From the NCBI GenBank assembly GCA_041650715.1, contig JBAZKQ010000001.1, positions 518,945-582,944 on the forward strand: DNA of 64,000 bases. Direction: 5' to 3'. Positions within the stretch are counted from its first letter, which is position 1. Every line of letters starts with the position of its first letter. Shown in pieces: positions 28,631 through 45,714 of the stretch. The translations under genes were made by a program, and so were the position numbers. The stretch comes from Patescibacteria group bacterium (lineage in GTDB: Bacteria; Patescibacteriota; Patescibacteriia; Patescibacteriales; UBA12465). The notes beneath the pieces are model-generated. The model searched no databases. It worked only from the letters and a program-made list of their open reading frames with translations, and was not told the DNA's origin.

Positions 28631-29680
28631 CTAAAATTTGGTGTCGAGCAGAAATATCATTAAAGCAATGGCCGCGCCAATACCGCCGATAACCCAAAAA
28701 CGCATAACTACTTTCGCTTCCGGCCAGCCTACGGCTTGATAATGATGATGGATAGGCGAAGACAAAAATATTTTTTTCCCGCGCCAGCGTTTAGATAAAA
28801 CTTGGATAATCACGGATAATGATTCGATAATAAATATTACACCAATCGGAATAAGCAAAAGCGCGCTATTAGTGAGCATCGCAATAATGCCCAGGGTAAC
28901 ACCCAAACTCATCGCTCCGGTGTCGCCCATATAAAAGCGGGCGGGCGGGATATTAAACCAAAGAAAAGCCAAAAGAGCACCAATAATCACTCCGCAAAAA
29001 GTCGCCAAATCATAACGCCCTAAGGTAAAAGCGATCACGCCGAAAGCCATAAAGGCAATAAGCAAGGTCCCCCCAGCGAGCCCGTCAAGGCCGTCGGTTT
29101 CATTAACGGAAAAAGAAGTAGAAACAATAACGAAAATAAAAATTGGAATATACCAAGCGCCAATTTCAAAATTACCCAAAAACGGAACATGAAAAACTGT
29201 CCAATCGAGTTTTAAATAAAACCACAGGGCGCCGACGATGGCAATCAGTGTATATATTAAAATACGGTGGCGTAATTTTAAGCCGCCGCCGCCCAGCACG
29301 CCTTTGCCGCGGACATCTAACCAATCATCAAACAAACCGATTAAAGCCGTGATAACCAAGGCGCCCAGGGGCAGCAAGGTTTCCGCGCGGGTTAAAAAAT
29401 TTAAGTGATCAAATAGGCTTCCCGGCCAAATGCGTGATAAACCGGAAAAAAGTAAAATCAAAATTAAAACTGTCCCCCAGATTAAAATACCACCCATGGT
29501 CGGCGTTCCCTCTTTATGGGCATGCAATACGCTAAATACCGGAGTGTTGCCACTATTTCTAATTTTTTTGCCTAACTTATATTTATAGAGAAAATGCGTG
29601 ACAAGCGGGGTAGCGAGGGCGGCTACCATAAAAGCCAAGGTCGCAAAAAATAAGACTTTAACCAGATAGAATTCCATCAT
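28631..29680 (-). CDS. mraY: Phospho-N-acetylmuramoyl-pentapeptide transferase
   Basis: 349 aa, polytopic, with GLFDDWLD, NETDGLDGLA and HHH motifs. Confidence 0.92.
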   Translation of the reverse strand: MMEFYLVKVLFFATLAFMVAALATPLVTHFLYKYKLGKKIRNSGNTPVFSVLHAHKEGTPTMGGILIWGTVLILILLFSGLSRIWPGSLFDHLNFLTRAETLLPLGALVITALIGLFDDWLDVRGKGVLGGGGLKLRHRILIYTLIAIVGALWFYLKLDWTVFHVPFLGNFEIGAWYIPIFIFVIVSTSFSVNETDGLDGLAGGTLLIAFMAFGVIAFTLGRYDLATFCGVIIGALLAFLWFNIPPARFYMGDTGAMSLGVTLGIIAMLTNSALLLIPIGVIFIIESLSVIIQVLSKRWRGKKIFLSSPIHHHYQAVGWPEAKVVMRFWVIGGIGAAIALMIFLLDTKF

Positions 29681-29686
29681 AGTAAA

Positions 29687-30115
29687 TTAACGAAAATTAA
29701 TTAGATAGACCGCCACCAGAGCGATACTTAAAAAAAGACCGAAAATGGCGGACGAACCTAAAAGATACATGACCAGGGCCTTAAAATTTTTATTTTTGTA
29801 CAAGATTGCCAAAAGGATAAAACTGAGCAGAAAAACGCCCAGGCCAAGCAAGGGGAAAAGATAAATTTGCGCCGGATCGCCGATCCGATCAATACCAAAA
29901 TCAACGTTATAATGGAGAACCAAAATTTCGCCACTTAATTTCTGACGGATAAGGCTGGTTTGCACCCAAGCGGCAATTTGCCAAAAAACAATCAAACTTA
30001 GGTAGACCCAGCTCGGTTTATAGTGGAAAATAGCTCCTAAAGAAGCCTTTATTTTATCGAAAATACCATAAAAACGCGCGTAAAAGTTGGAATAAGCCAT
30101 ATAATTTTCTAACAC
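29687..30115 (-). CDS. Hypothetical membrane protein heading the mraY operon
   Basis: 142 aa with 3-4 hydrophobic helices; no recognisable family. It ends 7 nt upstream of the mraY start. Confidence 0.55.
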   Translation of the reverse strand: MLENYMAYSNFYARFYGIFDKIKASLGAIFHYKPSWVYLSLIVFWQIAAWVQTSLIRQKLSGEILVLHYNVDFGIDRIGDPAQIYLFPLLGLGVFLLSFILLAILYKNKNFKALVMYLLGSSAIFGLFLSIALVAVYLINFR

Positions 30116-30198
30116 TTAAATCCCGTAAAAATGCGGGTTAACATAATTATTCTAACACATTTTTAAAATAATATAAAATAAGCTATAATAATTGTATT

Positions 30199-31188
30199 AT
30201 GAGTAAAAAAATCATCGCCAAGCTCTTCAATTACGCATCGCGTGAAGGGGCCAAAAAACTAATCATCGAGGGCAAGGCTCAGGACCTCGCCTTGCACTAC
30301 CACTTCCCGGACGGAGAGGAGCGCCGCTTTAGTTTACCGAAAAAAATTGAAAAAAATTTGAGCCAGGCGATCAGAGAAATTTTAGCGCTGGCGCCCGATG
30401 AGCTGACCGCCAAAAAATATTGCAAAGTTGAGGATAAAAATTATCGACTCAATTTCTATCTTACTATCGTCCCAACATCTGAAGGAGAAAAAATAATCAT
30501 TAATATCATACCCCAGAACGACAAGAAATTCGGACTAAAACAATTAGGCCTGCAAAAAAATGATTTGCTATCCCTGCAAAAAGCTTTGCGCCACCCTTCC
30601 GGTTTAATTATTCTCAGTTCCCCGGCCGAGCAAGGGAAAAGTACCGTTTTAAGCTCGCTCATCACGGAATTAAATACGCCGGAGCGCAGTCTTTATTTCT
30701 TGGGCGCGAGCACAAAAAATAAAATTAACGGCCTGAATACTTTGACGGAAACAAGAAGCAATTGGGAAAAAGTTTTGACAATCGACTCTGATATTATTTT
30801 TGCCGAAATGACTGATAGCGCCAACCTTGATTTGGCGGTCCGGGCCGCATCAACCGGCCGGCTCGCTGTTATTACCATGAGCGCCCAGTCGGTATGGGAA
30901 GTACTGCTAAACTACCTAAAATTAAAACTTCCCTTGAGATTAAAACTTGATAGTTTAAAATTAATTCTAAATTCGCGTATCGCCCCTCTTAAAACCGACA
31001 AGCGCGGCCAGATCGGGCTTTTCGAAGTTTTAGTTCTGAGCCAGAAAATAAAAAAATTCATTTCCGAGGCGGCGGGCGATGGGCCGAAAAAGCTTTTTTG
31101 GGAAAAATTAAGCCGGCTCGCCTTAAAAGAGGGTTATGAACCGCTAAGTTTCGATCACCAAAAGAAAATTAAGAATGGATTGCTATGA
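30199..31188 (+). CDS. GspE/PilB/PilT-superfamily ATPase-like protein with degenerate catalytic motifs
   Basis: Collinear with the secretion-ATPase core. The matching segments are YRLNFYLTIVPTSEGEKIIINIIP, LGL...PSGLIILSSPAEQGKSTVL, DSDIIFAEMTD, STGRLAVITMSAQ and GLFEVLVLS. The Walker A first glycines, the Asp box and both His-box histidines are replaced. Confidence 0.7.
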   Translation: MSKKIIAKLFNYASREGAKKLIIEGKAQDLALHYHFPDGEERRFSLPKKIEKNLSQAIREILALAPDELTAKKYCKVEDKNYRLNFYLTIVPTSEGEKIIINIIPQNDKKFGLKQLGLQKNDLLSLQKALRHPSGLIILSSPAEQGKSTVLSSLITELNTPERSLYFLGASTKNKINGLNTLTETRSNWEKVLTIDSDIIFAEMTDSANLDLAVRAASTGRLAVITMSAQSVWEVLLNYLKLKLPLRLKLDSLKLILNSRIAPLKTDKRGQIGLFEVLVLSQKIKKFISEAAGDGPKKLFWEKLSRLALKEGYEPLSFDHQKKIKNGLL

Positions 31189-31847
31189 AAATCACCTGCG
31201 TCATTCCGGCCTACAATGAAGAAAAAAGCATCGCCCTGGTAATTGAAAAATTACGGCCTTATGTTGATGAAATAATTGTCGTTGATGACGCTTCGGGCGA
31301 CGAGACCTCGCTTCGAGCTGCCCAGACGGGAGTGGTTCTCGTCCGCCATATTATCAATCGCGGCCAAGGCGCGGCGCTTCGCACCGGTACGCAATTAGCT
31401 CTGGCTAGAGGCGCCGATATCATTATCCATTTTGATGCTGATGATCAATTCCAAGTGGAAGATATCCCGGAAATGCTCGCCCCGCTTCAAGCCGGACGCG
31501 CCGACGCCGTTCTCGGATCTCGCTTCTTGGGCAAGGCGTCCAATCTGCCAAAAATGAAGAAAAATATTATTATGCCCCTGGCTCGTTTCACTAATCGTGT
31601 TTTCTTTAATATCCGCTTAAGCGATCCCCAAAGCGGTTTCCGCGCCCTGAGCCGTGAAAGCGCTCAAGCTTTAAAAATAGAGAATGACGGGATGGCGCAC
31701 TGCAGCGAGATTATCTATCAATTATTTAAAAATAAAAACCGGGTCGAAGAAGTGCCGATTACCGTTGTCTATCATGAATTCGGCCAGAACTTCAGCGGCG
31801 GCTTCAAAGTAATCCGCGACATCTTAATTCAAAAATTAATCAATTAA
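31185..31847 (+). CDS. Family 2 glycosyltransferase (polyprenyl-phosphate sugar synthase-like)
   Basis: VIPAYNEE...VVDDASGDET...HFDADDQ is a GT-A signature. 220 aa. ATGA start/stop overlap with the upstream gene. Confidence 0.85.
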   Translation: MKITCVIPAYNEEKSIALVIEKLRPYVDEIIVVDDASGDETSLRAAQTGVVLVRHIINRGQGAALRTGTQLALARGADIIIHFDADDQFQVEDIPEMLAPLQAGRADAVLGSRFLGKASNLPKMKKNIIMPLARFTNRVFFNIRLSDPQSGFRALSRESAQALKIENDGMAHCSEIIYQLFKNKNRVEEVPITVVYHEFGQNFSGGFKVIRDILIQKLIN

Positions 31848-31849
31848 AT

Positions 31850-32170
31850 ATGTTACAACAAATCTTAGCGCTTATCGTTATTCTTTTCTTTCTTATCCGG
31901 TTATTTCGCCAAAAAAAGAAAAAGCAAATTACGGGTAATGAATTTTTACTCTGGTTAATATTTTGGGTGCTGGCGCTCGGCGCGATTATTTTCCTTAAGC
32001 AGATAGATACTTTCGTCGCTTGGCTCGGCTTTTCCGGCACGGCGATTAATATTTTAGTTTACATTGCCGTATTAGCCTTAATCTACCAAGTCTTTCGGAT
32101 GCGTCTTAATATCGCCAAGATGGAAAAGAATATCAGCACACTGAATCAAGCCCTCACTTTAAAAAAATAA
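31850..32170 (+). CDS. Small membrane protein, DUF2304-like GT2 partner
   Basis: 106 aa with 3 TM helices plus a C-terminal helix. Its size, topology and position right after a GT2 match DUF2304. Confidence 0.6.
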   Translation: MLQQILALIVILFFLIRLFRQKKKKQITGNEFLLWLIFWVLALGAIIFLKQIDTFVAWLGFSGTAINILVYIAVLALIYQVFRMRLNIAKMEKNISTLNQALTLKK

Positions 32171-32186: not shown

Positions 32187-33320
32187 ATGAAAATTGCGAC
32201 TATCGTCTGCGCCTATCCTCCTTATGCCGGTGGCATCGGAAACAGCGCTTGGCGTATCAATCAAATGCTGGCTGAAAAACACGAGATCGAGGTCTTTACA
32301 CCCGATAACTTGCATCCCTGGCTCCGCTCCGGGCACGGCGCTTTTGCGCCGCAATTATTTTGGCGTTTGCGAAAATTTGATTATATTTATTTACATTACC
32401 CCTTTTTCGGGACGGCGGAAGTCGTCTGGTTTTTTAAATTATTTTTTCGCCGGCCGAAGCTCATTATCCAATATCATATGGACGTCCGCGGCCTCAGTCC
32501 CCTGGGACGTCTATTAAGCTTGCCGAGCCGGCTTATTCGCCGCTCCCTTCTGGGCCAGGCGGAAACGATCGTGACAGCGAGCCGAGACTATATCGAGTCC
32601 AGCCAAATAAAAAAATATTATGCCGCTCATAAAGAAAAATTTCAGGAAATTCCCTTCGGCGTCGATATTAATAAATTCCAACCGAAATTAATCAACCGGC
32701 CCTTAGAAAATAAAACTTTTGCTCGCGCTCAAGAAATTGTCCATTTCATCAACGATAAATTCATCAAGCGAGACAAGCTAAACCTCCTCTTTGTCGGCGG
32801 GCTTGATTCGGCGCACTATTTCAAAGGCGTGAGCGTCCTGCTGAACGCGCTGGTCGTCGTCAGCGACCGCCGGTGGCACTTGCGCATCGTCGGCGACGGT
32901 AATTTGCGCGCCGACTACGAAGCTTTATCGCGGAAGCTAAAACTCAACGGCCAGATTGAATTTGCCGGCAATTTATCCGAGACAGACCTGATACGATCTT
33001 TTCAGAATGCGGATTTATTTATTCTCCCCTCAATTAATAGTAACGAAGCCTTTGGCCTCGTCCTGATTGAAGCGCTTGCCTGCGGCGTGCCGGTTATCGC
33101 TTCTAATCTTCCGGGCGTGCGCAGCGTCTTTAGCGACCACGAGCAAGGACTATTAATTGAACCGGGGAGCATAATGGATCTCCAAAATAAATTAGAATTT
33201 ATTTTTAAAAACGAAGAAATGCGCCGTCTGATGGCGCTCGCTGCCCGCCGCCACGCCGAAAATAAATACGATAACGCCAAAATAAAGCTCCGTTTAGAAA
33301 ATTTATTTAAGTCGCTTTAA
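32187..33320 (+). CDS. Family 4 (GT-B) glycosyltransferase
   Basis: 377 aa with a C-terminal EAFGLVLIEALACGVPVIASN motif (E-x7-E class). Confidence 0.85.
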   Translation: MKIATIVCAYPPYAGGIGNSAWRINQMLAEKHEIEVFTPDNLHPWLRSGHGAFAPQLFWRLRKFDYIYLHYPFFGTAEVVWFFKLFFRRPKLIIQYHMDVRGLSPLGRLLSLPSRLIRRSLLGQAETIVTASRDYIESSQIKKYYAAHKEKFQEIPFGVDINKFQPKLINRPLENKTFARAQEIVHFINDKFIKRDKLNLLFVGGLDSAHYFKGVSVLLNALVVVSDRRWHLRIVGDGNLRADYEALSRKLKLNGQIEFAGNLSETDLIRSFQNADLFILPSINSNEAFGLVLIEALACGVPVIASNLPGVRSVFSDHEQGLLIEPGSIMDLQNKLEFIFKNEEMRRLMALAARRHAENKYDNAKIKLRLENLFKSL

Positions 33321-33338
33321 AAAATTTATTATAATCCG

Positions 33339-34469
33339 ATGAAAATAGCTTTAGCCAATAATCTTTATTATCCCTATAACCGCGGCGGTGCCGAAAGTGT
33401 TGTTAAGCAAATGATTGCCGCTCTCAAGGCGGCCGGTCATGAAGTTTTTTTAATTACGACCGAACCGAAAAATGAAAGCACGGCGACTCCGCCCGAAATC
33501 ATAACGAAGGACGGTCTTAAAACATATTATTTCCCTTCCGGCTACATGAACTTAGCTGATCGCTCGCCCTATCTTCACTTTTTTTGGCACTTTAATAATC
33601 TCTTTTCGTTTCACCGCAGCGCCGCCATAAAAAAAGTACTGCTCGCCGAAAAAACCGAGCTTATTATTACCCATAATCTTATGGGCCTGGGATTTTATCT
33701 CCCGGTCATAATCCGAAAATTAAAAATTCGGCACGAGCATTATCTGCACGATATTCAATTGCTTTATCCGTCGGGATTAATGTTATTGGGGCATGAAAAA
33801 ATTGTCGATAATTTAAGCGCTAAATTATATCAATTATTTACCCGCGCCTTTTTTGCTTCACCGGCTAAAGTTAGTTCCCCTTCTTTCTGGCTGCTCGGCC
33901 AATACCGCCAGCGCGGTTTTTTCCATGACTCGGAAACGGAAATCAGAAATATGGGAACAGAAAGCGCGACTCAGCCGGCCAGGGACGCGTCCGGCGAAAT
34001 CAAGCCGGCCGAAACGGACCCTCGTAGCGCGCAAAAAATGAAAAACTTTTTATTTGTCGGCCAAATCGAAAGCCACAAGGGCATTATTTTATTGATAAAA
34101 GCTTTTATCAGCGCCTGCGAAACGGACGCAAGTATCCGGCTTAGCGTTGTCGGCGACGGTATCCTGCTCGACGAAGCCAAAGCTTTGGCGGCGGCCAATG
34201 AAAGAATTAGCTTCCTCGGTCGCCTGGACGCCGGCGGTGTTAGAGATTTAATGGTGGCGAGCGACTGTCTCGTCGTCCCCTCCTTATGCTATGAAAACGC
34301 ACCGACGACAATCTTCGAAGCACACAGCGTCGGTCTGCCGGTTTTGGCATCAAATATCGGCGGCATACCGGAAATCGTAAATGAACAAGACAAACTATTT
34401 AGAGCGGGTGATTTTATGGATTTAAAAAATAATATTTTAAATCTATCCCAAGCAAAACAAAGCGAATAA
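33339..34469 (+). CDS. Family 4 (GT-B) glycosyltransferase
   Basis: 376 aa with an N-terminal YYPYNRGGAE and a C-terminal ENAPTTIFEAHSVGLPVLASNIGG. Confidence 0.8.
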   Translation: MKIALANNLYYPYNRGGAESVVKQMIAALKAAGHEVFLITTEPKNESTATPPEIITKDGLKTYYFPSGYMNLADRSPYLHFFWHFNNLFSFHRSAAIKKVLLAEKTELIITHNLMGLGFYLPVIIRKLKIRHEHYLHDIQLLYPSGLMLLGHEKIVDNLSAKLYQLFTRAFFASPAKVSSPSFWLLGQYRQRGFFHDSETEIRNMGTESATQPARDASGEIKPAETDPRSAQKMKNFLFVGQIESHKGIILLIKAFISACETDASIRLSVVGDGILLDEAKALAAANERISFLGRLDAGGVRDLMVASDCLVVPSLCYENAPTTIFEAHSVGLPVLASNIGGIPEIVNEQDKLFRAGDFMDLKNNILNLSQAKQSE

Positions 34470-35578: not shown

Positions 35579-37606
35579 TTAATTATTTATTTTTATTATA
35601 CCAAGATTAACGCCACCGCTAAAGCCCGCCTCCCAGGCGTAAAAAGATTCAAGCAGATTACCGCTATTATCAAAAATACGGACATGCGGGGCCGCTCCCG
35701 GATTGGCGCCCAGCGCAATTTCATTAATCCCGTCATTATCAATATCGCCGGCCGTTAAGTTAACGCCACCTTGCCAATTTTTATTAAAGGCAAGAAATTG
35801 TTTTAGTAGCTCCGCATGATTGCTAAATATTTTGACCTGAGCTTCCCGGCCCTTACCCGGCGCCGTAATTATTTCCGCTTTATCGTGATCTTTGCGGCCA
35901 TCAACATTAGCCACAACAACTTTAACCCCGCCGCGGAACTGCTTCTCGTAAGCAAACCAGACCCCGATTAATTTACCCGCGTCATTAAATATTTTAACGA
36001 GCGGCTCATGGCCGCTACCATAACCGATAATTATTTTATTTTCCCCTTTACCCTCAATATCACCCACCGACACACTCAGCCCGCCGATATAATATTTATC
36101 TGTCGCCATAAACTGGCCGACCAATTTCCCGGTCGCACTAAAAATTCTTACTTGTCCGGAGCCGCGCGAAGCCGGTACGGTAATTATTTCCGCTTGGTCA
36201 TTATTATCCGAACTGGAAACCGCTACGTTTATTCCGCCGCGAAAGGTTTTAGTCTGTGCTAAAAATTTAGTCAGTAATTTACCGGCGGAATTAAAAACCA
36301 TAACATAAGGCTCGGTCCCCGGGGCGGCGCCGATAACTATTTCATCTTGCCCGTCGCCATTTACATCACCCGTCGCGATACTTCCGCCCGGGGCAATCTT
36401 TTGGCTCCAATTAATATCGCTGACCTTATCGCCGTTAGACGCCGTTAATTTTGTTTCTTTAAGACCGGTCACCGGCATAACGATTAAACGTCCTAAACGA
36501 CTATACAATTGGCTTTTAGCCAGTTCAATCGCGCTATTAAGGTTTAGGCGCCCGTTACCTAATTGGCCCAAATAGTCAGGGTTAAGCCGACTAATATTAT
36601 CGGTCGAAGCAAAAAGGACATTTACAATTTCCCGCCGACTTAATTCCGGATTGGCTTGGGCAATCAGCGCCAAGGAAGCGGAAACCAAAGGGGCCGCCAT
36701 TGAAGTCCCCGACCAATAACCGTCGTAATAACTATTGGGATTATTGATATCGCTGCCGGGAGTAATGGCATTAAAAAAGCTGATGCCGGGAGCGGCGATA
36801 TCGACACAATGAAAACCATAACTGGAAAAACGCGCCTTTTGGTCAAGGGCATCCGTCGCCACAACGCCAATTACCATATTTTCACCGAGTTGCCCGTCGT
36901 AACAGGCCGGGTAAATCGGCGTCTTATCGATATTATAGCCCTCGCCGACTGACTGTTCGTTACCGGCGGCGGCGACAATCATTACCCCCATATCGTGGGC
37001 GCGACGAATGGCTTCTTGAACGCTTTCGCTATAACTAAAATTTACAAAACTTAAATTAATAATATCGGCGCCGTTACTCGTCGCATAATCAATCGCGCGC
37101 ACCACATCGCTAATTTTTCCTTCACCTTGATCATTTAATACACGCAAGGGCATAATTTTCGCGCGCCAAGTTACTCCGGCTACACCCTGATAATTATTAC
37201 CGCGCGCCGCAATAATACCGGCCACCATTGTACCGTGAGAAATCCCCGCTTCGGTCCAGCCACTGGCAAATTTCGGCGAAGGATCAGGGCCACCCGTTAC
37301 AAAATCCCAACCGTTAAGGTCATCAGTATAACCATTTTTATCGTCATCTTTTTTATTGCCGGCAATCTCTTTATTATTATGCCAAATATTATCCTGCAAA
37401 TCAGGATGATTAATATCGATACCGGAATCAATGACGGCAATAACCATATCCGGGCTTTCCGAAATTTTTTCCCAGGCGCTATCCGCTCCGATTTTAGCCA
37501 AATACCATTGGTTCTTATAATAAGGGTCATTAGGCGTCATGCTCGCCAAAACCGGCTCGGCCAGAACGAGAAAGAGTATAAAAAAAGATGTTAGTATTTT
37601 CTTCAT
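35579..37606 (-). CDS. Secreted subtilisin-like (S8) serine protease fused to about 6 FG-GAP/VCBS repeats
   Basis: Has a signal peptide. The catalytic triad contexts are AVIDSGID (Asp), HGTMVAGI (His) and GTSMAAPLV (Ser). The C-terminal half repeats GD.dGDG..EIi.g..pG..P.V.iF...G.l. Confidence 0.88.
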   Translation of the reverse strand: MKKILTSFFILFLVLAEPVLASMTPNDPYYKNQWYLAKIGADSAWEKISESPDMVIAVIDSGIDINHPDLQDNIWHNNKEIAGNKKDDDKNGYTDDLNGWDFVTGGPDPSPKFASGWTEAGISHGTMVAGIIAARGNNYQGVAGVTWRAKIMPLRVLNDQGEGKISDVVRAIDYATSNGADIINLSFVNFSYSESVQEAIRRAHDMGVMIVAAAGNEQSVGEGYNIDKTPIYPACYDGQLGENMVIGVVATDALDQKARFSSYGFHCVDIAAPGISFFNAITPGSDINNPNSYYDGYWSGTSMAAPLVSASLALIAQANPELSRREIVNVLFASTDNISRLNPDYLGQLGNGRLNLNSAIELAKSQLYSRLGRLIVMPVTGLKETKLTASNGDKVSDINWSQKIAPGGSIATGDVNGDGQDEIVIGAAPGTEPYVMVFNSAGKLLTKFLAQTKTFRGGINVAVSSSDNNDQAEIITVPASRGSGQVRIFSATGKLVGQFMATDKYYIGGLSVSVGDIEGKGENKIIIGYGSGHEPLVKIFNDAGKLIGVWFAYEKQFRGGVKVVVANVDGRKDHDKAEIITAPGKGREAQVKIFSNHAELLKQFLAFNKNWQGGVNLTAGDIDNDGINEIALGANPGAAPHVRIFDNSGNLLESFYAWEAGFSGGVNLGIIKINN

Positions 37607-38930: not shown

Positions 38931-39938
38931 TTATTTAGTCGCTAAAATACTACGTTTATATGAATCTAAATTATCTAAAGCAATTCCCGTTCCCTTGACC
39001 ACGCAGAGCATGGCGTCATCGGCCACGTAAGCCGGCACACCGGTCGTACGCGCGATTAATTGATCCATATTGCGCAGCAAGGAGCTGCCGCCGGTCAGCA
39101 CGATTCCTTTATCCATGATATCGGCCGATAACTCAGGCGGCGTTTTTTGCAAAACTTTTTTGGCCGCGGAAATTATCGCTTCCAGCTCATTCTGAATCGC
39201 TTCGGTCACATCATCGCTTGAAACGGTAATACTGCGCGGCAAACCGGTCACAATATCGCGGCCCCGGATTTCCATATGTAATTTATCCTCCATGTATAAT
39301 GCCGAACCGATATTGATTTTAATTTCCTCGGCTGTTCTTTCTCCGATCGCTAAATTATATTTCTTGCGGACATACTCTAAAATCGCGGCGTCGAATTTAT
39401 TGCCGCCCACCCGAACGGAAGTCGAGGCGACCACACCGCCTAAAGAAATAACTGCCATTTCCGCCGTGCCGCCACCAATATCAATCACCATATGGCCGGT
39501 TGCCGAACCGATCGGAATATCTGCGCCAATCGCCGCGGCGACCGGTTCTTTAATGATATAAGCCGCCTTCGCGCCCGCCGCGATAGTCGCTTCAATTACG
39601 GCCCGACGTTCGGTTGAAGAAATGCCCGCCGGCACGGCGACCATCACTTCCGGACGAAAGAGGCGGATACCGCCCAAAGTTTTATTGATAAAATAACGAA
39701 TCATGGCTTCGGTCGCTTTATAGTCGGCAATCACGCCGTCTTTAAGCGGACGAACGGCCGTAATCGTATCCGGCGTACGCCCAATCATATCCTTAGCCTC
39801 GTTACCGACAGCCAAGATTTTTTTATCAGTTACCGAAACCGCCACCACACTCGGCTCATTAATAACAATCCCGCGTTTCGGCAGGTGGACAAGCGTATAA
39901 GTTGTTCCGAGATCAATCCCGATTCTTTTGATAAACAT
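38931..39938 (-). CDS. MreB-like actin homolog (second paralog)
   Basis: 335 aa with GIDLGTTYT, DIGGGTAEMAVISLGG and LTGGSSLL; by eye roughly half the residues match the mreB at 44674..45714. Confidence 0.88.
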   Translation of the reverse strand: MFIKRIGIDLGTTYTLVHLPKRGIVINEPSVVAVSVTDKKILAVGNEAKDMIGRTPDTITAVRPLKDGVIADYKATEAMIRYFINKTLGGIRLFRPEVMVAVPAGISSTERRAVIEATIAAGAKAAYIIKEPVAAAIGADIPIGSATGHMVIDIGGGTAEMAVISLGGVVASTSVRVGGNKFDAAILEYVRKKYNLAIGERTAEEIKINIGSALYMEDKLHMEIRGRDIVTGLPRSITVSSDDVTEAIQNELEAIISAAKKVLQKTPPELSADIMDKGIVLTGGSSLLRNMDQLIARTTGVPAYVADDAMLCVVKGTGIALDNLDSYKRSILATK

Positions 39939-43851: not shown

Positions 43852-44664
43852 TTAAGGAATAATTACGGCGACGACAGTCAGATTATTTAAATTAACGAGC
43901 GGCTCAATCGTCGCATCTTGCCAAACCTCATTGCTTTCGTTGCGGACTTCAATTATTTTTCCAATAACCAGGCCGCGCGGAATGCTGCCGCCAAGCCCGG
44001 AACTGATGACCGTATCGCCAGCCGAAATTTTTTCAAGTTGCGGAATATAACTCATTTTAATCGTCAAACCTAAATCACCATCGGTGATTCCCTGCGTCTG
44101 CGTTTGATTCTGGATAGCGGCCGCTAACTTGCACTCCGGACTGGTCGTCAGGCAAATTTTCGCGCTGGTTTCTTTGGCCTCAATTACTTTACCGATAATC
44201 ACGCCTTCTTCGCTCACGACGCCTTGGCCGATAGCCACACCGTCATTAGTCCCCTTGTTAATAATGAGGTCCTGGCCGTTCTCCGTTTCTTCCGTGATTG
44301 ACTCGCGCGCAATTACCGCGGCTGAGACAGATTTATATTTATTGTCATTAACGAATTTTAATAAATTACGGAGTTTTTCATTTTCATTAAGAATTTCTTT
44401 CTGCTGGGAATTGGCGACAGTAAGAGCGGCCACCTCATTCGTTAATTCGGAAACGCGCGCCGAAAGGGCTGCCTGAGTTTCACGCTCAGAATATGATCGG
44501 CTAAACATGTTGCCCCAGCGGTAGAATTGTCCGTTAACCGGCTTGGCCCAATTAAGAATTACATTTTCGAGCGGGCGTAAGGCACCGATGCCATGTAAAA
44601 AAACCAGCAGTCCGAAAACTACCAGAAAAATTAAAATTAGATTGTTTTTTTTAATTCGTTTCAT
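43852..44664 (-). CDS. mreC: Rod shape-determining protein MreC
   Basis: 270 aa with an N-terminal TM helix, a coiled segment, then GDTVISSGLGGSIPRGLVIGKI beta-barrel motifs. Confidence 0.85.
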   Translation of the reverse strand: MKRIKKNNLILIFLVVFGLLVFLHGIGALRPLENVILNWAKPVNGQFYRWGNMFSRSYSERETQAALSARVSELTNEVAALTVANSQQKEILNENEKLRNLLKFVNDNKYKSVSAAVIARESITEETENGQDLIINKGTNDGVAIGQGVVSEEGVIIGKVIEAKETSAKICLTTSPECKLAAAIQNQTQTQGITDGDLGLTIKMSYIPQLEKISAGDTVISSGLGGSIPRGLVIGKIIEVRNESNEVWQDATIEPLVNLNNLTVVAVIIP

Positions 44665-44673
44665 GAAAAAAAT

Positions 44674-45714
44674 TTATTCTTGGTTATTCGCCAAAACCAC
44701 TTTCTCCAGCAGCTCCTTGTTGCCCAAAAGCAAACCCGTGCCACGCACGACGCAAGTTAGCGGGTCATCCACAATTTTTACCGGAATCTTGGCGGCGGCC
44801 GAAATGGCTTGATCAAGGCCGCGCAGAAGAGCGCCTCCCCCGGACAGATACAGGCCGCGTTCATAAATATCGGATACTAATTCCGGCGGCGTCGTTTCCA
44901 AAATAGTTTTTATGGTTTCAATAATCTTTAAAACGGTGCGGCTAATCGCCTCTCGAACTTGCTTGTCGCTAATCATGATCGCTTTCGGCAAGCCGGTTAA
45001 AAGATCGCGCCCGCGTACTTCAATTTCTTTCGCTTCTTCAAGCGGCACGGCCGACCCGATTCCGATTTTAATGCTTTCAGCCAGCTGTTCACCGATTAAA
45101 ATATTAAATTCCTCGCGGATATACTCAATAATATTATTATCAAATTCATTGCCGGCTGCTTTGAGCGAGCGCCAAGTAACTACTCCGCCCAGAGAAATAA
45201 CGGCGATTTCGCTGGTTCCGCCGCCAATATCGACAATCATGGTCGCCGTCGCTTCCGTTACCGGCAGGCGAGCGCCGATAGCGGCGGCCATCGCTTCTTC
45301 AATTAAATATACCTTGCGCGCTCCGGCCGATCGCGCCGCATCTTCAACCGCCTTTTTCTCTACCTCGGTTAAATCAAGCGGAATACCGATAACCACGCGC
45401 GGACGCGAAATTAAAGTAAAATTCTCACTATGCACTTTATTAATAAAATACTTCAACATTTTTTCTGTAATTTCAAAATCAGAAATGACGCCATCCACAA
45501 GCGGCTTGATCGCTTCAATATGGCCCGGCGTTTTACCAACCATTTTTTTGGCCGCTTCACCGACCTCAAGGATTTCATTAGTTCTTTTGTTGATCGCGAC
45601 TACGCTCGGTTCGTTAACAACAATTCCTTTATCGGCAACATAAACCAGGGTATTACGCGTACCGAGGTCGATTCCTAAATCATGACTGAATTTTCCGAGC
45701 AGGTTATTGAACAT
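44674..45714 (-). CDS. mreB: Rod shape-determining protein MreB
   Basis: 346 aa with GIDLGTRNT, DIGGGTSEIAVISLGG and LSGGGALLRGLD. Confidence 0.93.
   Translation of the reverse strand: MFNNLLGKFSHDLGIDLGTRNTLVYVADKGIVVNEPSVVAINKRTNEILEVGEAAKKMVGKTPGHIEAIKPLVDGVISDFEITEKMLKYFINKVHSENFTLISRPRVVIGIPLDLTEVEKKAVEDAARSAGARKVYLIEEAMAAAIGARLPVTEATATMIVDIGGGTSEIAVISLGGVVTWRSLKAAGNEFDNNIIEYIREEFNILIGEQLAESIKIGIGSAVPLEEAKEIEVRGRDLLTGLPKAIMISDKQVREAISRTVLKIIETIKTILETTPPELVSDIYERGLYLSGGGALLRGLDQAISAAAKIPVKIVDDPLTCVVRGTGLLLGNKELLEKVVLANNQE

Follow-up and report, generated by a model that had tools for sequence, protein, structure and literature searches.

In the 64-kb window, by which we mean the whole stretch of DNA that was analysed, a reading frame of 329 codons starting with ATG lies between two divergent sets of genes (Table 1). 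Its product, referred to here as the pseudo-ATPase, resembles the core of the PilB/GspE secretion ATPases. Downstream and on the same strand, the stop codon of this gene and the start codon of a GT2 glycosyltransferase gene share an ATGA overlap, and genes for a DUF2304 protein and two GT4 glycosyltransferases follow. Upstream and on the opposite strand, the gene of a small conserved protein (hyp137 or hyp142, according to its length) is the first of a divergent mraY-ftsW-murG cell-wall operon, and in every lineage it is a landmark for the site where pilB stood ancestrally. The best promoter-like site in the intergenic region between the two operons is TTTAAA-16-TATAAT at 30162-30189, which is a match to the consensus only, the total number of such sites being not above that of shuffled controls. 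This candidate promoter ends 9 nt before the ATG, suggesting a leaderless or nearly leaderless mRNA.

Table 1. Features of the locus, with positions counted from the first letter of the window.
Feature	Position	Strand	Evidence
MraY	28631..29680	-	Pfam
Conserved 137-142-aa protein (hyp137/hyp142), three predicted hydrophobic segments	29687..30115	-	no family match
Divergent intergenic region, 83 nt	30116..30198		sequence
Pseudo-ATPase, putative truncated, catalytically degenerate PilB/GspE-core protein, 329 aa	30199..31188	+	Pfam, phmmer, AlphaFold2, Foldseek
Arg-finger replacement K72-K73-Y74, in place of D-G-R	30412..30420	+	alignments
Walker A remnant SSPAEQGKST, aa 140-149	30616..30645	+	alignments
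Asp-box remnant YFLGASTK, aa 166-173	30694..30717	+	alignments
Walker B remnant IIFAEMTD, aa 199-206	30793..30816	+	alignments
His-box remnant TGRLAVITMSAQ, aa 219-230	30853..30888	+	alignments
GT2 glycosyltransferase, PpgS/GacI type (predicted polyprenyl-phosphate sugar synthase)	31185..31847	+	PF00535, E=3e-25; NCBIfam
DUF2304 small membrane protein, GacJ/Rv3632 type	31850..32170	+	PF10066, E=2.4e-15
GT4 glycosyltransferase a	32187..33320	+	Pfam, NCBIfam
GT4 glycosyltransferase b, final gene of the plus-strand operon	33339..34469	+	Pfam, NCBIfam

The Pfam search assigned the 329-aa protein to T2SSE (PF00437; E=3.9e-19, 69 bits), and phmmer against the PDB gave V. cholerae EpsE (1p9r, E=6e-14) as the best match, followed by PilB and PilF. 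The AlphaFold2 model (mean pLDDT 85.2, pTM 0.68) matched EpsE (1p9w, E=8e-27), PilF (5oiu) and PilB (5tsh) best in Foldseek. Both the significant sequence similarity and the domain layout, with an N2D at about aa 1-105 and a RecA-like CTD at about aa 110-329, place the protein in the T2SSE family, and the model predicts the N2D+CTD fold of GspE and PilB. At the NCBIfam equivalog level the protein fell short, scoring about 73-81.5 bits against cut-offs of 617-676 (PilB TIGR02538, GspE NF007755 and TIGR02533).

The catalytic motifs were read from the HMMER alignment and from a family alignment, and residue frequencies were compared between 200 unique degenerate sequences and 246 canonical ones. 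In the window protein, the Walker A motif GPTGSGKST has become SPAEQGKST and departs from the canonical G-x4-G-K-[ST]: Ser stands in place of the first Gly and Glu in place of the fourth, and the core G146, K147 and S148 is retained. Across the degenerate family, G146 is present in 100% of the sequences, and the Lys position holds K in 74% and R in 22%. The Glu within the P-loop of the window protein (E144) is rare even among the degenerate sequences and may disfavour phosphate binding. The Asp box VEDPIE reads LGASTK, so that Glu, Asp and Pro of (I/V)EDP(I/V)E are all gone; in the family, 25% of the sequences still have the Glu and 19% the Asp, and the common residues do not include the canonical Pro. 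Walker B has changed from VGEIRD to AEMTD, with Ala for Gly and Thr for Arg, Glu203 (the catalytic position) and Asp206 being retained. At the Glu position the family has E in 38% and D in 41% (acidic in 79%), and the Arg is substituted by other residues throughout. The His box TGHLVMSTLHTN is represented by TGRLAVITMSAQ, in which TGHLVxSTLHT reads TGRLAVITMSA; the first His has become Arg, as in 92% of the family (R221), and the second, which is lost family-wide, has become Ser. The arginine-finger motif QDGR reads AKKY, and the family conserves K73 (72%) and Y74 (80%) at this site. The tetracysteine zinc-binding motif is absent from the window protein because there is a single Cys, and the N1/MshEN domain is absent because the sequence begins at the N2D. 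Two CxxC motifs can still be seen in degenerate relatives of 346-400 aa.

As judged from these alignments, the clear losses in the window protein are the Asp box, both His, the Arg fingers, the zinc finger and the N-terminal domain. Catalytic residues have been lost with the fold retained, in the window protein and across the family, which is the pattern of a pseudoenzyme. An earlier note, made from the letters of the window, had described a protein collinear with the secretion-ATPase core in which the key motifs are replaced and the tetracysteine motif and N-terminal domains are missing. The collinearity was borne out by the family, PDB and structural matches, and a careful alignment leaves the replaced Asp box, the two lost His and the missing domains standing; the degeneracy moreover proved to be conserved across the family. 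Its description of Walker A was right as to the Gly positions and missed that the G-K-S core is kept, and the loss of Walker B was overstated, since the Gly and Arg have changed and both acidic residues are intact.

The best NCBIfam match of the GT2 enzyme was PpgS (NF058614), over the full length with 156.8 bits, which is under the equivalog cut-off of 370; the next was AglJ. The enzyme is predicted to be of the same type as PpgS, without equivalog-level similarity and with no sugar specificity implied. The GT2 gene (PF00535) is directly followed, with 2 nt between them, by the DUF2304 gene (PF10066), as in GacI/GacJ-type pairs. DUF2304 proteins of the GacJ/Rv3632 type partner and stimulate their GT2 (bioRxiv 10.1101/180810). 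Like GacI/GacJ of Streptococcus pyogenes and PpgS/Rv3632 of M. tuberculosis, the pair in the window consists of a soluble-type GT2 and then DUF2304, in the same order (bioRxiv 10.1101/180810), and it is predicted to be a polyprenyl-phosphate sugar synthase of this type. Unlike the window, those systems come with no mention of an ATPase-like third partner in the papers on them that we consulted.

Related loci were found by a search with 14 close sequences of the family. Among 97 loci at the pilB position, 6 encoded canonical PilB, 23 a degenerate protein with the zinc finger and 53, including the window locus, a degenerate protein without it; 6 had no ATPase gene. The degenerate family comprises more than 100 protein clusters. 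Several candidates were set aside. A canonical PilB (P0103, contig of 102,540 bp) that might have been taken for a contig-mate of a degenerate gene (102,539 bp) came from an unrelated organism and sample, and P0301 and L014 (both 27,371 bp) were different contigs. The 297-aa P0279 was a split canonical PilB in a normal pilus locus, and matches of ~1000 aa were tandem canonical PilB-PilB fusions.

In sister lineages, the same site holds a canonical PilB of 572-605 aa (MshEN plus T2SSE, all motifs intact), with the divergent hyp137-mraY on one side and the same GT2-DUF2304-GT4-GT4 cassette on the other. A short way further on come PilM/N/O, pilins and PilC, and the cassette is part of a complete type IV pilus locus. 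Canonical PilB was found upstream of the orthologous GT2 in L058, L067, L068, L096, L097 and L098 and also in L104/L105, and pilB adjoins hyp137-mraY in L106. At this one chromosomal position, the stages of decay run from the full motor through loss of the His and Asp boxes with the zinc finger kept, and loss of the zinc finger, to a minimal form of 290 aa or complete deletion. The graded series clusters on a GT2 neighbour-joining tree, the only tree made, on which L081 and L021 fall inside the 'canonical' GT2 clade. With the most degenerate forms as queries, the BLAST signal is saturated and does not discriminate between the PilBs of Patescibacteria and those of other groups, so that the zinc-finger-bearing intermediates alone are informative; these less degenerate forms match Patescibacteria PilB best (for example P0256, 229 vs 185 bits). 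Position and similarity together support in-situ descent, in which the window gene would be the positional descendant of canonical pilB. By its sequence, the gene appears to be a shortened, catalytically dead descendant of PilB, the type IV pilus assembly motor ATPase. New here is that a pseudo-ATPase occupies the exact site of the canonical full-length pilB of sister Patescibacteria.

All degenerate relatives examined, including those of no more than 25% identity, retained the pairing with GT2-DUF2304-GT4-GT4. The degenerate gene overlapped GT2 by 4 nt in 33 of 75 loci and lay within 30 nt of it in 73 of 75, and none of the 6 canonical loci had the overlap. Considering that sister lineages have canonical pilB at the same site upstream of the same cassette, the adjacency of ATPase and GT2 is at least partly inherited; since a block of ~17 kb is moreover collinear across the window's clade, conservation of the neighbourhood is weak evidence of functional coupling. 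Six loci carried GT2-DUF2304 with no ATPase gene immediately upstream (three with hyp142 abutting GT2 and three with an epimerase gene upstream), indicating that the link between the GT operon and the pseudo-ATPase is not an obligate one. A search of the 76 degenerate loci (711 kb in all) and of the 64-kb window turned up no homologues of pilC/M/N/O or of pilins, so that across this sequence the degenerate gene has neither a gene for the platform protein PilC/GspF nor any other pilus or secretion gene as a neighbour.

The earlier note had also reported the ATGA overlap followed by DUF2304 and two GT4 genes, which we confirmed, and had asked whether the same gene pair occurs in other genomes, as it does. 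It would have given up its reading had the relatives kept pil/gsp neighbours, and the degenerate relatives have none. Its claim that the arrangement is undescribed stands in so far as we found no published description, and the conserved pseudoenzyme family is apparently undescribed; it does not stand in the sense of a newly recruited ATPase, the gene being a likely positional descendant of canonical pilB.

The reading frame is intact in the 76 degenerate loci, and the related proteins diverge to as little as 25% identity. The two closest pairs gave dN/dS values of ~0.12-0.15, similar to those of GT4b, hyp142 and MurG, which are rough because dS is near saturation (1.1-1.3); for all but these two pairs, dS was near or beyond saturation. 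The pseudo-ATPase is the fastest-evolving gene of the block, with identities of 25-61% vs 53-79% for GT2 and 70-88% for MraY. It is under purifying selection and keeps an intact frame across divergent lineages, as is characteristic of a pseudoenzyme.

Our preferred explanation, to which we give a probability of about 0.55, is that the gene is a PilB relic at the old pilB site, now non-catalytic and coupled to an operon for a lipid-linked sugar synthase, with the role of a scaffold or switch. The ancestor would have had a canonical PilB between hyp137-mraY and the GT cassette, with pilus genes on the far side. Within the clade of the window, the zinc finger, the Asp and His boxes, the arginine fingers and the domain at the N-terminus would have gone from the gene at the pilB position, the remaining pilus genes would have disappeared from the locus, and the remnant would have become translationally coupled to GT2. 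It would retain the two-domain fold that forms PilB-type rings and a remodelled phosphate pocket (a P-loop with G-K/R-S/T, Arg for the first His and Lys-Tyr for the Arg finger). From the kept fold and this pocket we infer that a nucleotide or another phosphate-bearing ligand is probably bound without hydrolysis. Such a protein could sit on the cytoplasmic side of the membrane as an oligomer without catalytic activity, serving as a scaffold or switch. Produced in constant proportion to the GacI/GacJ-like polyprenyl-phosphate sugar synthase, it would modulate the synthesis of a surface glycan (cell-wall polymer or pilin) or direct it to a particular place; ATP-driven motor activity would not be expected of it. 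The role of scaffold or regulator that the earlier note put forward would thus be a plausible one.

A precedent for a PilB protein affecting polysaccharide output without ATP hydrolysis or pilus assembly comes from M. xanthus, in which an ATPase-deficient PilB variant still supports exopolysaccharide production and the signalling state is set by nucleotide occupancy (PMC5544727). There, however, an active full-length PilB moonlights through the Dif pathway, whereas the window protein appears permanently dead, is truncated and is encoded in a glycosyltransferase operon. As for pilin as the glycan acceptor, in Pseudomonas aeruginosa group IV strains the GT-C enzyme TfpW glycosylates pilins from a lipid-linked sugar donor, a precedent for such enzymes in pilus loci (bioRxiv 10.1101/2020.04.19.049825). 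The sister-lineage cassette resembles it in standing in a pilus locus, and the pilin genes within the cassette (L046 and L094) and the pilus-embedded cassette (L104) lend the idea of pilin glycosylation some support. In contrast, neither a GT-C enzyme nor a pilin was found in the 64-kb window, and nothing ties the pseudo-ATPase to pilin modification.

A more specific form of the preferred explanation concerns the divergent cell-wall operon. MraY draws on the same undecaprenyl-phosphate pool as the PpgS/GacI-type enzyme. The former pilus motor might have been exapted as an obligate non-catalytic subunit or ligand sensor, so that a dead PilB ring docks on the GacI/GacJ-like complex, senses a nucleotide or nucleotide-sugar with its remodelled phosphate pocket and gates undecaprenyl phosphate between the surface glycan and the divergent MraY/peptidoglycan pathway, this part having been kept when the pilus machine was lost from the locus. 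We regard this form as speculative and, taken as a whole, unlikely.

The pseudo-ATPase could instead still be a pilus component, that is, a non-catalytic subunit that regulates or structurally supports a type IV pilus whose genes lie elsewhere in the genome, either as a member of mixed PilB/PilT rings or by occupying the PilC platform, with the adjacency to the glycosyltransferases a historical leftover. In favour of this are its homology to PilB, its descent from it and the retained ring-forming N2D+CTD core; against it is the lack of the N-terminal MshEN/N1 domain, by which GspE/PilB ATPases dock onto GspL/PilM. The 711 kb across the 76 degenerate loci hold no pil gene, the coupling to GT2 became tighter after degeneration and, as weak evidence, the best 120 Patescibacteria PilB clusters and the degenerate genes shared no contig among the matches listed. 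Patescibacteria have been described as having well-conserved type IV pili (10.1101/2024.11.25.624915), and PilT without catalytic activity can, in company with PilU, still sustain pilus retraction (reviewed in PMC11656802), which shows that a ring of the PilT/PilB family can have a structural role independent of hydrolysis. That case differs in that engineered Walker-box mutants work within an intact pilus machine, whereas here a natural degenerate family has no pilus genes nearby. Considering both sides, we hold a surviving pilus function to be doubtful.

Still less probable is a divergent but active NTPase, whose slow hydrolysis would energise glycan export or the flipping of lipid-linked sugars. 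The window protein does keep K147, S148, E203 and D206, and 79% of the family have an acidic residue at the catalytic-Glu position. Lost family-wide, however, are the Asp box, which coordinates Mg2+ and water, both His, which sense the gamma-phosphate, the Arg of Walker B and the arginine fingers. Moreover, 26% of the family carry Arg or some other residue in place of the Walker A Lys, indicating that hydrolysis is not the conserved property. Least of all do we expect a functionless relic, with a frame kept open only because GT2 translation needs ribosomes finishing the upstream ORF: the 4-nt overlap could create such a dependence, the gene evolves fastest in its block and some lineages have deleted it outright, but selection for coupling alone would not keep the amino-acid sequence, and the dN/dS ratio is low (~0.12-0.15), length and fold are conserved in relatives down to 25% identity and novel family-specific residues are maintained (R221 92%, Y74 80%, G146 100%).

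Compared with the canonical PilB/GspE ATPases, the pseudo-ATPase shares the N2D + RecA-like CTD fold, a collinear sequence and the genomic position of Patescibacteria pilB, and differs in having no MshEN/N1, zinc finger, Arg fingers, Asp box or either His, a weakened Walker A and no pil neighbours. ATPases of this type are regarded as dedicated motors, and we found no report of a natural dead branch conserved family-wide. Judged by its sequences, this clade of ultrasmall Patescibacteria appears to keep a dead PilB under selection, a clear example from nature of a motor protein that has turned into a pseudoenzyme. The decay series at one position offers a rare view of the path from ATPase to pseudoenzyme and of the surfaces that selection maintains. 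Databases label these proteins as "ATPase, T2SS/T4P/T4SS family" or "TadA", which could yield false calls of pilus capacity in genome surveys. The locus links the pilus region of Patescibacteria to a lipid-linked sugar pathway of the GacI/GacJ type, and it is probably through surface glycans and pili that these episymbionts interact with their hosts.

The pseudo-ATPase, a degenerate ATPase-like protein encoded directly upstream of a GT2 gene, matched the Pfam family T2SSE (E=3.9e-19) and, by sequence, solved GspE, PilB and PilF structures (EpsE 1p9r, E=6e-14). In an AlphaFold2 model based on 37 family members, the mean pLDDT was 85.2, and Foldseek returned EpsE, PilF, PilB and GspE as its top matches (E=1e-27 to 1e-23), with DotB and PilT next. 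The predicted fold combines the N2D and the RecA-like CTD that make up the core of secretion ATPases, in agreement with the earlier note, which had proposed such a prediction. The N1/MshEN domain is absent, and there is no zinc finger, with a single Cys in the whole protein. Motifs were read from the HMMER alignment to EpsE and the family alignment. Both supported the degenerate motifs described in the earlier note, but the Walker A G-K-S core and the Walker B Glu and Asp proved to be retained.

Features of the window and of compared loci (L numbers)
Feature	Position	Strand
Pseudo-ATPase ORF, 329 aa	window 30199-31188	+
137-147-aa membrane protein, window copy	window 29687-30115	-
Region upstream of the pseudo-ATPase ATG, with best -35/-10 match TTTAAA-16-TATAAT	window 30162-30198	
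Subtilase (Peptidase_S8) with FG-GAP repeats, 675 aa	window 35579-37606	-
MreB paralogue	window 38931-39938	-
MreC	window 43852-44664	-
MreB paralogue	window 44674-45714	-
Pseudo-ATPase match ending near residue 275; GT2 match without first ~80 residues	L012 8001-9624	
Pilin gene (N_methyl motif) after DUF2304, fused to Fib_succ_major domain	L046 6001-7317	+
Pilin gene (N_methyl motif) between GT2 and DUF2304	L094 2354-2821	+
Insertion: HNH endonuclease, small unknown genes	L104 3989-7106	
Insertion: HigB-like toxin with HTH antitoxin, OTCase, amidohydrolase, acetyltransferase	L106 2414-6916	

Motifs of the pseudo-ATPase, and residue frequencies in 200 unique degenerate and 246 canonical sequences
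Motif	Canonical	Pseudo-ATPase	Change	Degenerate sequences	Canonical sequences
Walker A	GPTGSGKST	SPAEQGKST	first Gly to Ser, fourth Gly to Glu	Lys: K 74%, R 22%; first Gly: S 68%, A 18%, G 13%	K 100%; G 100%
Asp box	VEDPIE	LGASTK	Glu, Asp, Pro all gone	Glu retained in 25%, Asp in 19%; Pro outside common residues	Glu 100%, Asp 94%, Pro 100%
Walker B	VGEIRD	AEMTD	Gly and Arg gone	Glu position: E 38%, D 41%; Arg substituted	E 100%; R 100%
His box	TGHLVMSTLHTN	TGRLAVITMSAQ	neither His left	His1: R 92%; His2 gone	H 100%; H 100%
Arg fingers	QDGR	AKKY	gone	G-R positions: K 72%, Y 80%	G 94%, R 83%

A search of 5.8 billion proteins yielded ~100 clusters of 290-350 aa with 38-84% identity, all of Patescibacteria or Falkowbacteria origin; their annotations are merely generic or read 'TadA'. 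When 1.84 billion representatives were searched with a profile, further degenerate subgroups appeared, shorter (~290 aa) or longer (355-390 aa). The pseudo-ATPase thus represents a conserved family rather than a one-off. The residue frequencies show that catalysis-related residues are gone from this family, and that a new set of family-specific residues around the old nucleotide pocket is conserved in their place (G146 100%, R221 92%, Y74 80%). Tandem PilB-PilB fusions of ~980-1020 aa were also seen (P0148, P0151-P0157, P0159, P0161, P0162, P0165, P0167, P0169), with Walker A, Asp box, Walker B and His box intact in both halves.

For the two closest locus pairs, the pseudo-ATPase dN/dS was ~0.12 and ~0.15 at dS values near saturation (1.3 and 1.1), close to the values of GT4b, the small membrane protein hyp142 and MurG; those of GT2 (~0.06) and MraY (~0.03) were lower. 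The pseudo-ATPase was the most divergent gene of the block in every locus, and its ORF was never disrupted except in one doubtful case, L012, which may be a frameshift, deletion or assembly error. The gene is under purifying selection and is not a decaying pseudogene.

Upstream and divergent lie genes for a 137-142-aa membrane protein, MraY, FtsW, MurG, a Mur ligase, an ABC transporter and MurB. Across 14 species-representative genome loci, the membrane protein and mraY occupied one strand and pseudo-ATPase-GT2-DUF2304-GT4(-GT4) the other, and the most divergent members (P0100, P0101, P0102, P0185, P0256) had the same order. The pseudo-ATPase-GT2 pair, which the earlier note had suggested seeking in other genomes, is thus present in all of these. 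The membrane protein (137-147 aa across loci) contains three hydrophobic segments and matched nothing in Pfam or NCBIfam. Its gene heads the mraY-ftsW-murG operon in all Patescibacteria loci inspected (window, L001-L022, L046-L106), whether its neighbor is canonical PilB, a pseudo-ATPase or nothing. Patescibacteria-type blocks also occur in L001, L003 and L012 (CAZYNT01, CAYIZF01, CAZCQW01), from MAGs titled 'uncultured Gammaproteobacteria bacterium'; identity to the window is 47-59% for the pseudo-ATPase and 80-87% for MraY, and the labels are probably wrong. In some relatives, foreign genes break up the dcw cluster (L104 and L106 insertions in the table).

Because the whole block is collinear in the clade, shared gene order alone says little, and the metagenome scan was therefore seeded with GT2 instead of the ATPase. 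The slot upstream was classified in 97 loci with a full-length GT2. It held a degenerate ATPase-like gene without CxxC (290-352 aa) in 53 loci, the window included and two cut by a contig edge, and one retaining two CxxC motifs (346-400 aa) in 23 (e.g., L051, L056, L074, L081, L099). Canonical full-length PilB (572-605 aa) with all motifs intact occupied it in six (L058, L067, L068, L096, L097, L098), with MshEN and T2SSE domains (Pfam) in L068. There was no ATPase gene in three loci where hyp142 directly abutted GT2 (L046, L052, L057) and in three with an epimerase upstream (L078, L094, L095); eight ended at a contig edge, and one had another state. In a neighbor-joining tree of GT2, these states grouped by clade.

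In L104 and L105, the minus strand carries MurB ... FtsW, MraY and hyp138, and the plus strand PilB, GT2, DUF2304, GT4 and GT4; beyond the cassette, PilO, PilN, PilM, three unknowns, pilin and PilC are convergent. PilM/N/O are likewise found in L068. L106 has MraY and hyp137 (minus), then PilB, PilC and pilin-like genes, and no GT cassette. In these Patescibacteria, then, pilB regularly occupies the position that diverges from hyp137-mraY. The pseudo-ATPase sits in exactly this slot, and no locus has canonical and degenerate copies together. The Zn-bearing, less-degenerate forms were closest to this Patescibacteria PilB group, not to the best-scoring PilBs of the whole library (229 versus 185 bits for P0256, 226 versus 199 for P0239); the most degenerate forms were uninformative in this comparison. 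P0177 (443 aa) shares 67% identity with canonical Patescibacteria PilB and exemplifies forms in which the His box alone has changed. In P0177 and P0245 (481 aa), the Walker A, Walker B and Asp-box motifs are all intact, and the His box of the PilB-like P0177, P0245, P0178 and P0180 reads TGR/TGK...S..A, as in the degenerate family; these four may be early intermediates. From position and similarity, we conclude that the pseudo-ATPase descends from pilB, most simply in situ.

The overlap of the pseudo-ATPase stop with the GT2 start (ctATGAaa), and the GT2, DUF2304 and two GT4 genes downstream, were as the earlier note described. The 4-nt overlap occurred in 33 of 75 degenerate loci, and the gap was within 30 nt in 73, whereas none of the six canonical loci had an overlap (gaps 16-542 nt). 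The spacing to GT2 is thus tighter in degenerate loci. The case that the earlier note had named as evidence against its reading, pil/gsp genes in place of GTs beside the gene in all relatives, was not borne out: no PilC, PilM, PilN, PilO or pilin homologues occurred in 76 degenerate loci (711 kb, window included), and no pil/gsp genes or prepilin motifs within the 64-kb window. The best -35/-10 match ends 9 nt upstream of the pseudo-ATPase ATG, and no Shine-Dalgarno sequence is evident in the region given in the table, which points to an mRNA with little or no leader.

The GT2 plus DUF2304 arrangement is shared with GacI/GacJ of S. pyogenes and PpgS/Rv3632 of M. tuberculosis. Such GT2 enzymes produce a polyprenyl-monophosphate sugar; DUF2304, their small membrane partner, binds them and stimulates them strongly (bioRxiv 10.1101/180810). 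The best NCBIfam match of the GT2 was PpgS, full length but below the equivalog cut-off, with archaeal AglJ next. RmlB-like and RmlC-like genes, another GT4 and two MreB genes are also present in the window, and the region is a cell-envelope glycan neighborhood. Within 7 kb, the genes of the two MreB paralogues and MreC alternate with those for sugar-nucleotide functions (RmlB-like, RmlC-like, HIT, PfkB kinase) and a response regulator. The subtilase is convergent downstream of the GT operon, with one epimerase gene between; its position and a third GT4 are conserved in nearly all degenerate loci. L046 and L094, whose lineages lack an ATPase gene at this position, carry pilin genes inside the cassette, and these genes, together with the order in L104, link the cassette to pili in relatives.

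The pseudo-ATPase family is a branch of pseudoenzymes within PilB/GspE; full-text literature searches brought up no account of it or of its pairing with GT2-DUF2304. One study of Patescibacteria pili reports that Walker boxes are well conserved in its PilB and PilT proteins (10.1101/2024.11.25.624915). The pseudo-ATPase would no longer hydrolyze ATP and may still bind a phosphate-bearing ligand via the retained P-loop G-K/R-S/T together with the newly gained Arg, Lys and Tyr residues. Its proposed part is that of an oligomeric scaffold or switch, itself non-catalytic, for the lipid-linked sugar synthase translated along with it. Roles that need no hydrolysis have precedents: an ATPase-deficient PilB variant of M. 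xanthus still supports exopolysaccharide production (PMC5544727), and an inactive PilT functions jointly with PilU (PMC11656802). Strict dependence of the cassette on the pseudo-ATPase is weakened by the six loci without an upstream ATPase gene and by the inherited adjacency. As the chief alternative, the protein may have a structural or regulatory function in a pilus machine whose genes lie elsewhere in the genome. The main value of these loci lies in a natural degeneration series and in the link of a pilus locus to surface-glycan synthesis.
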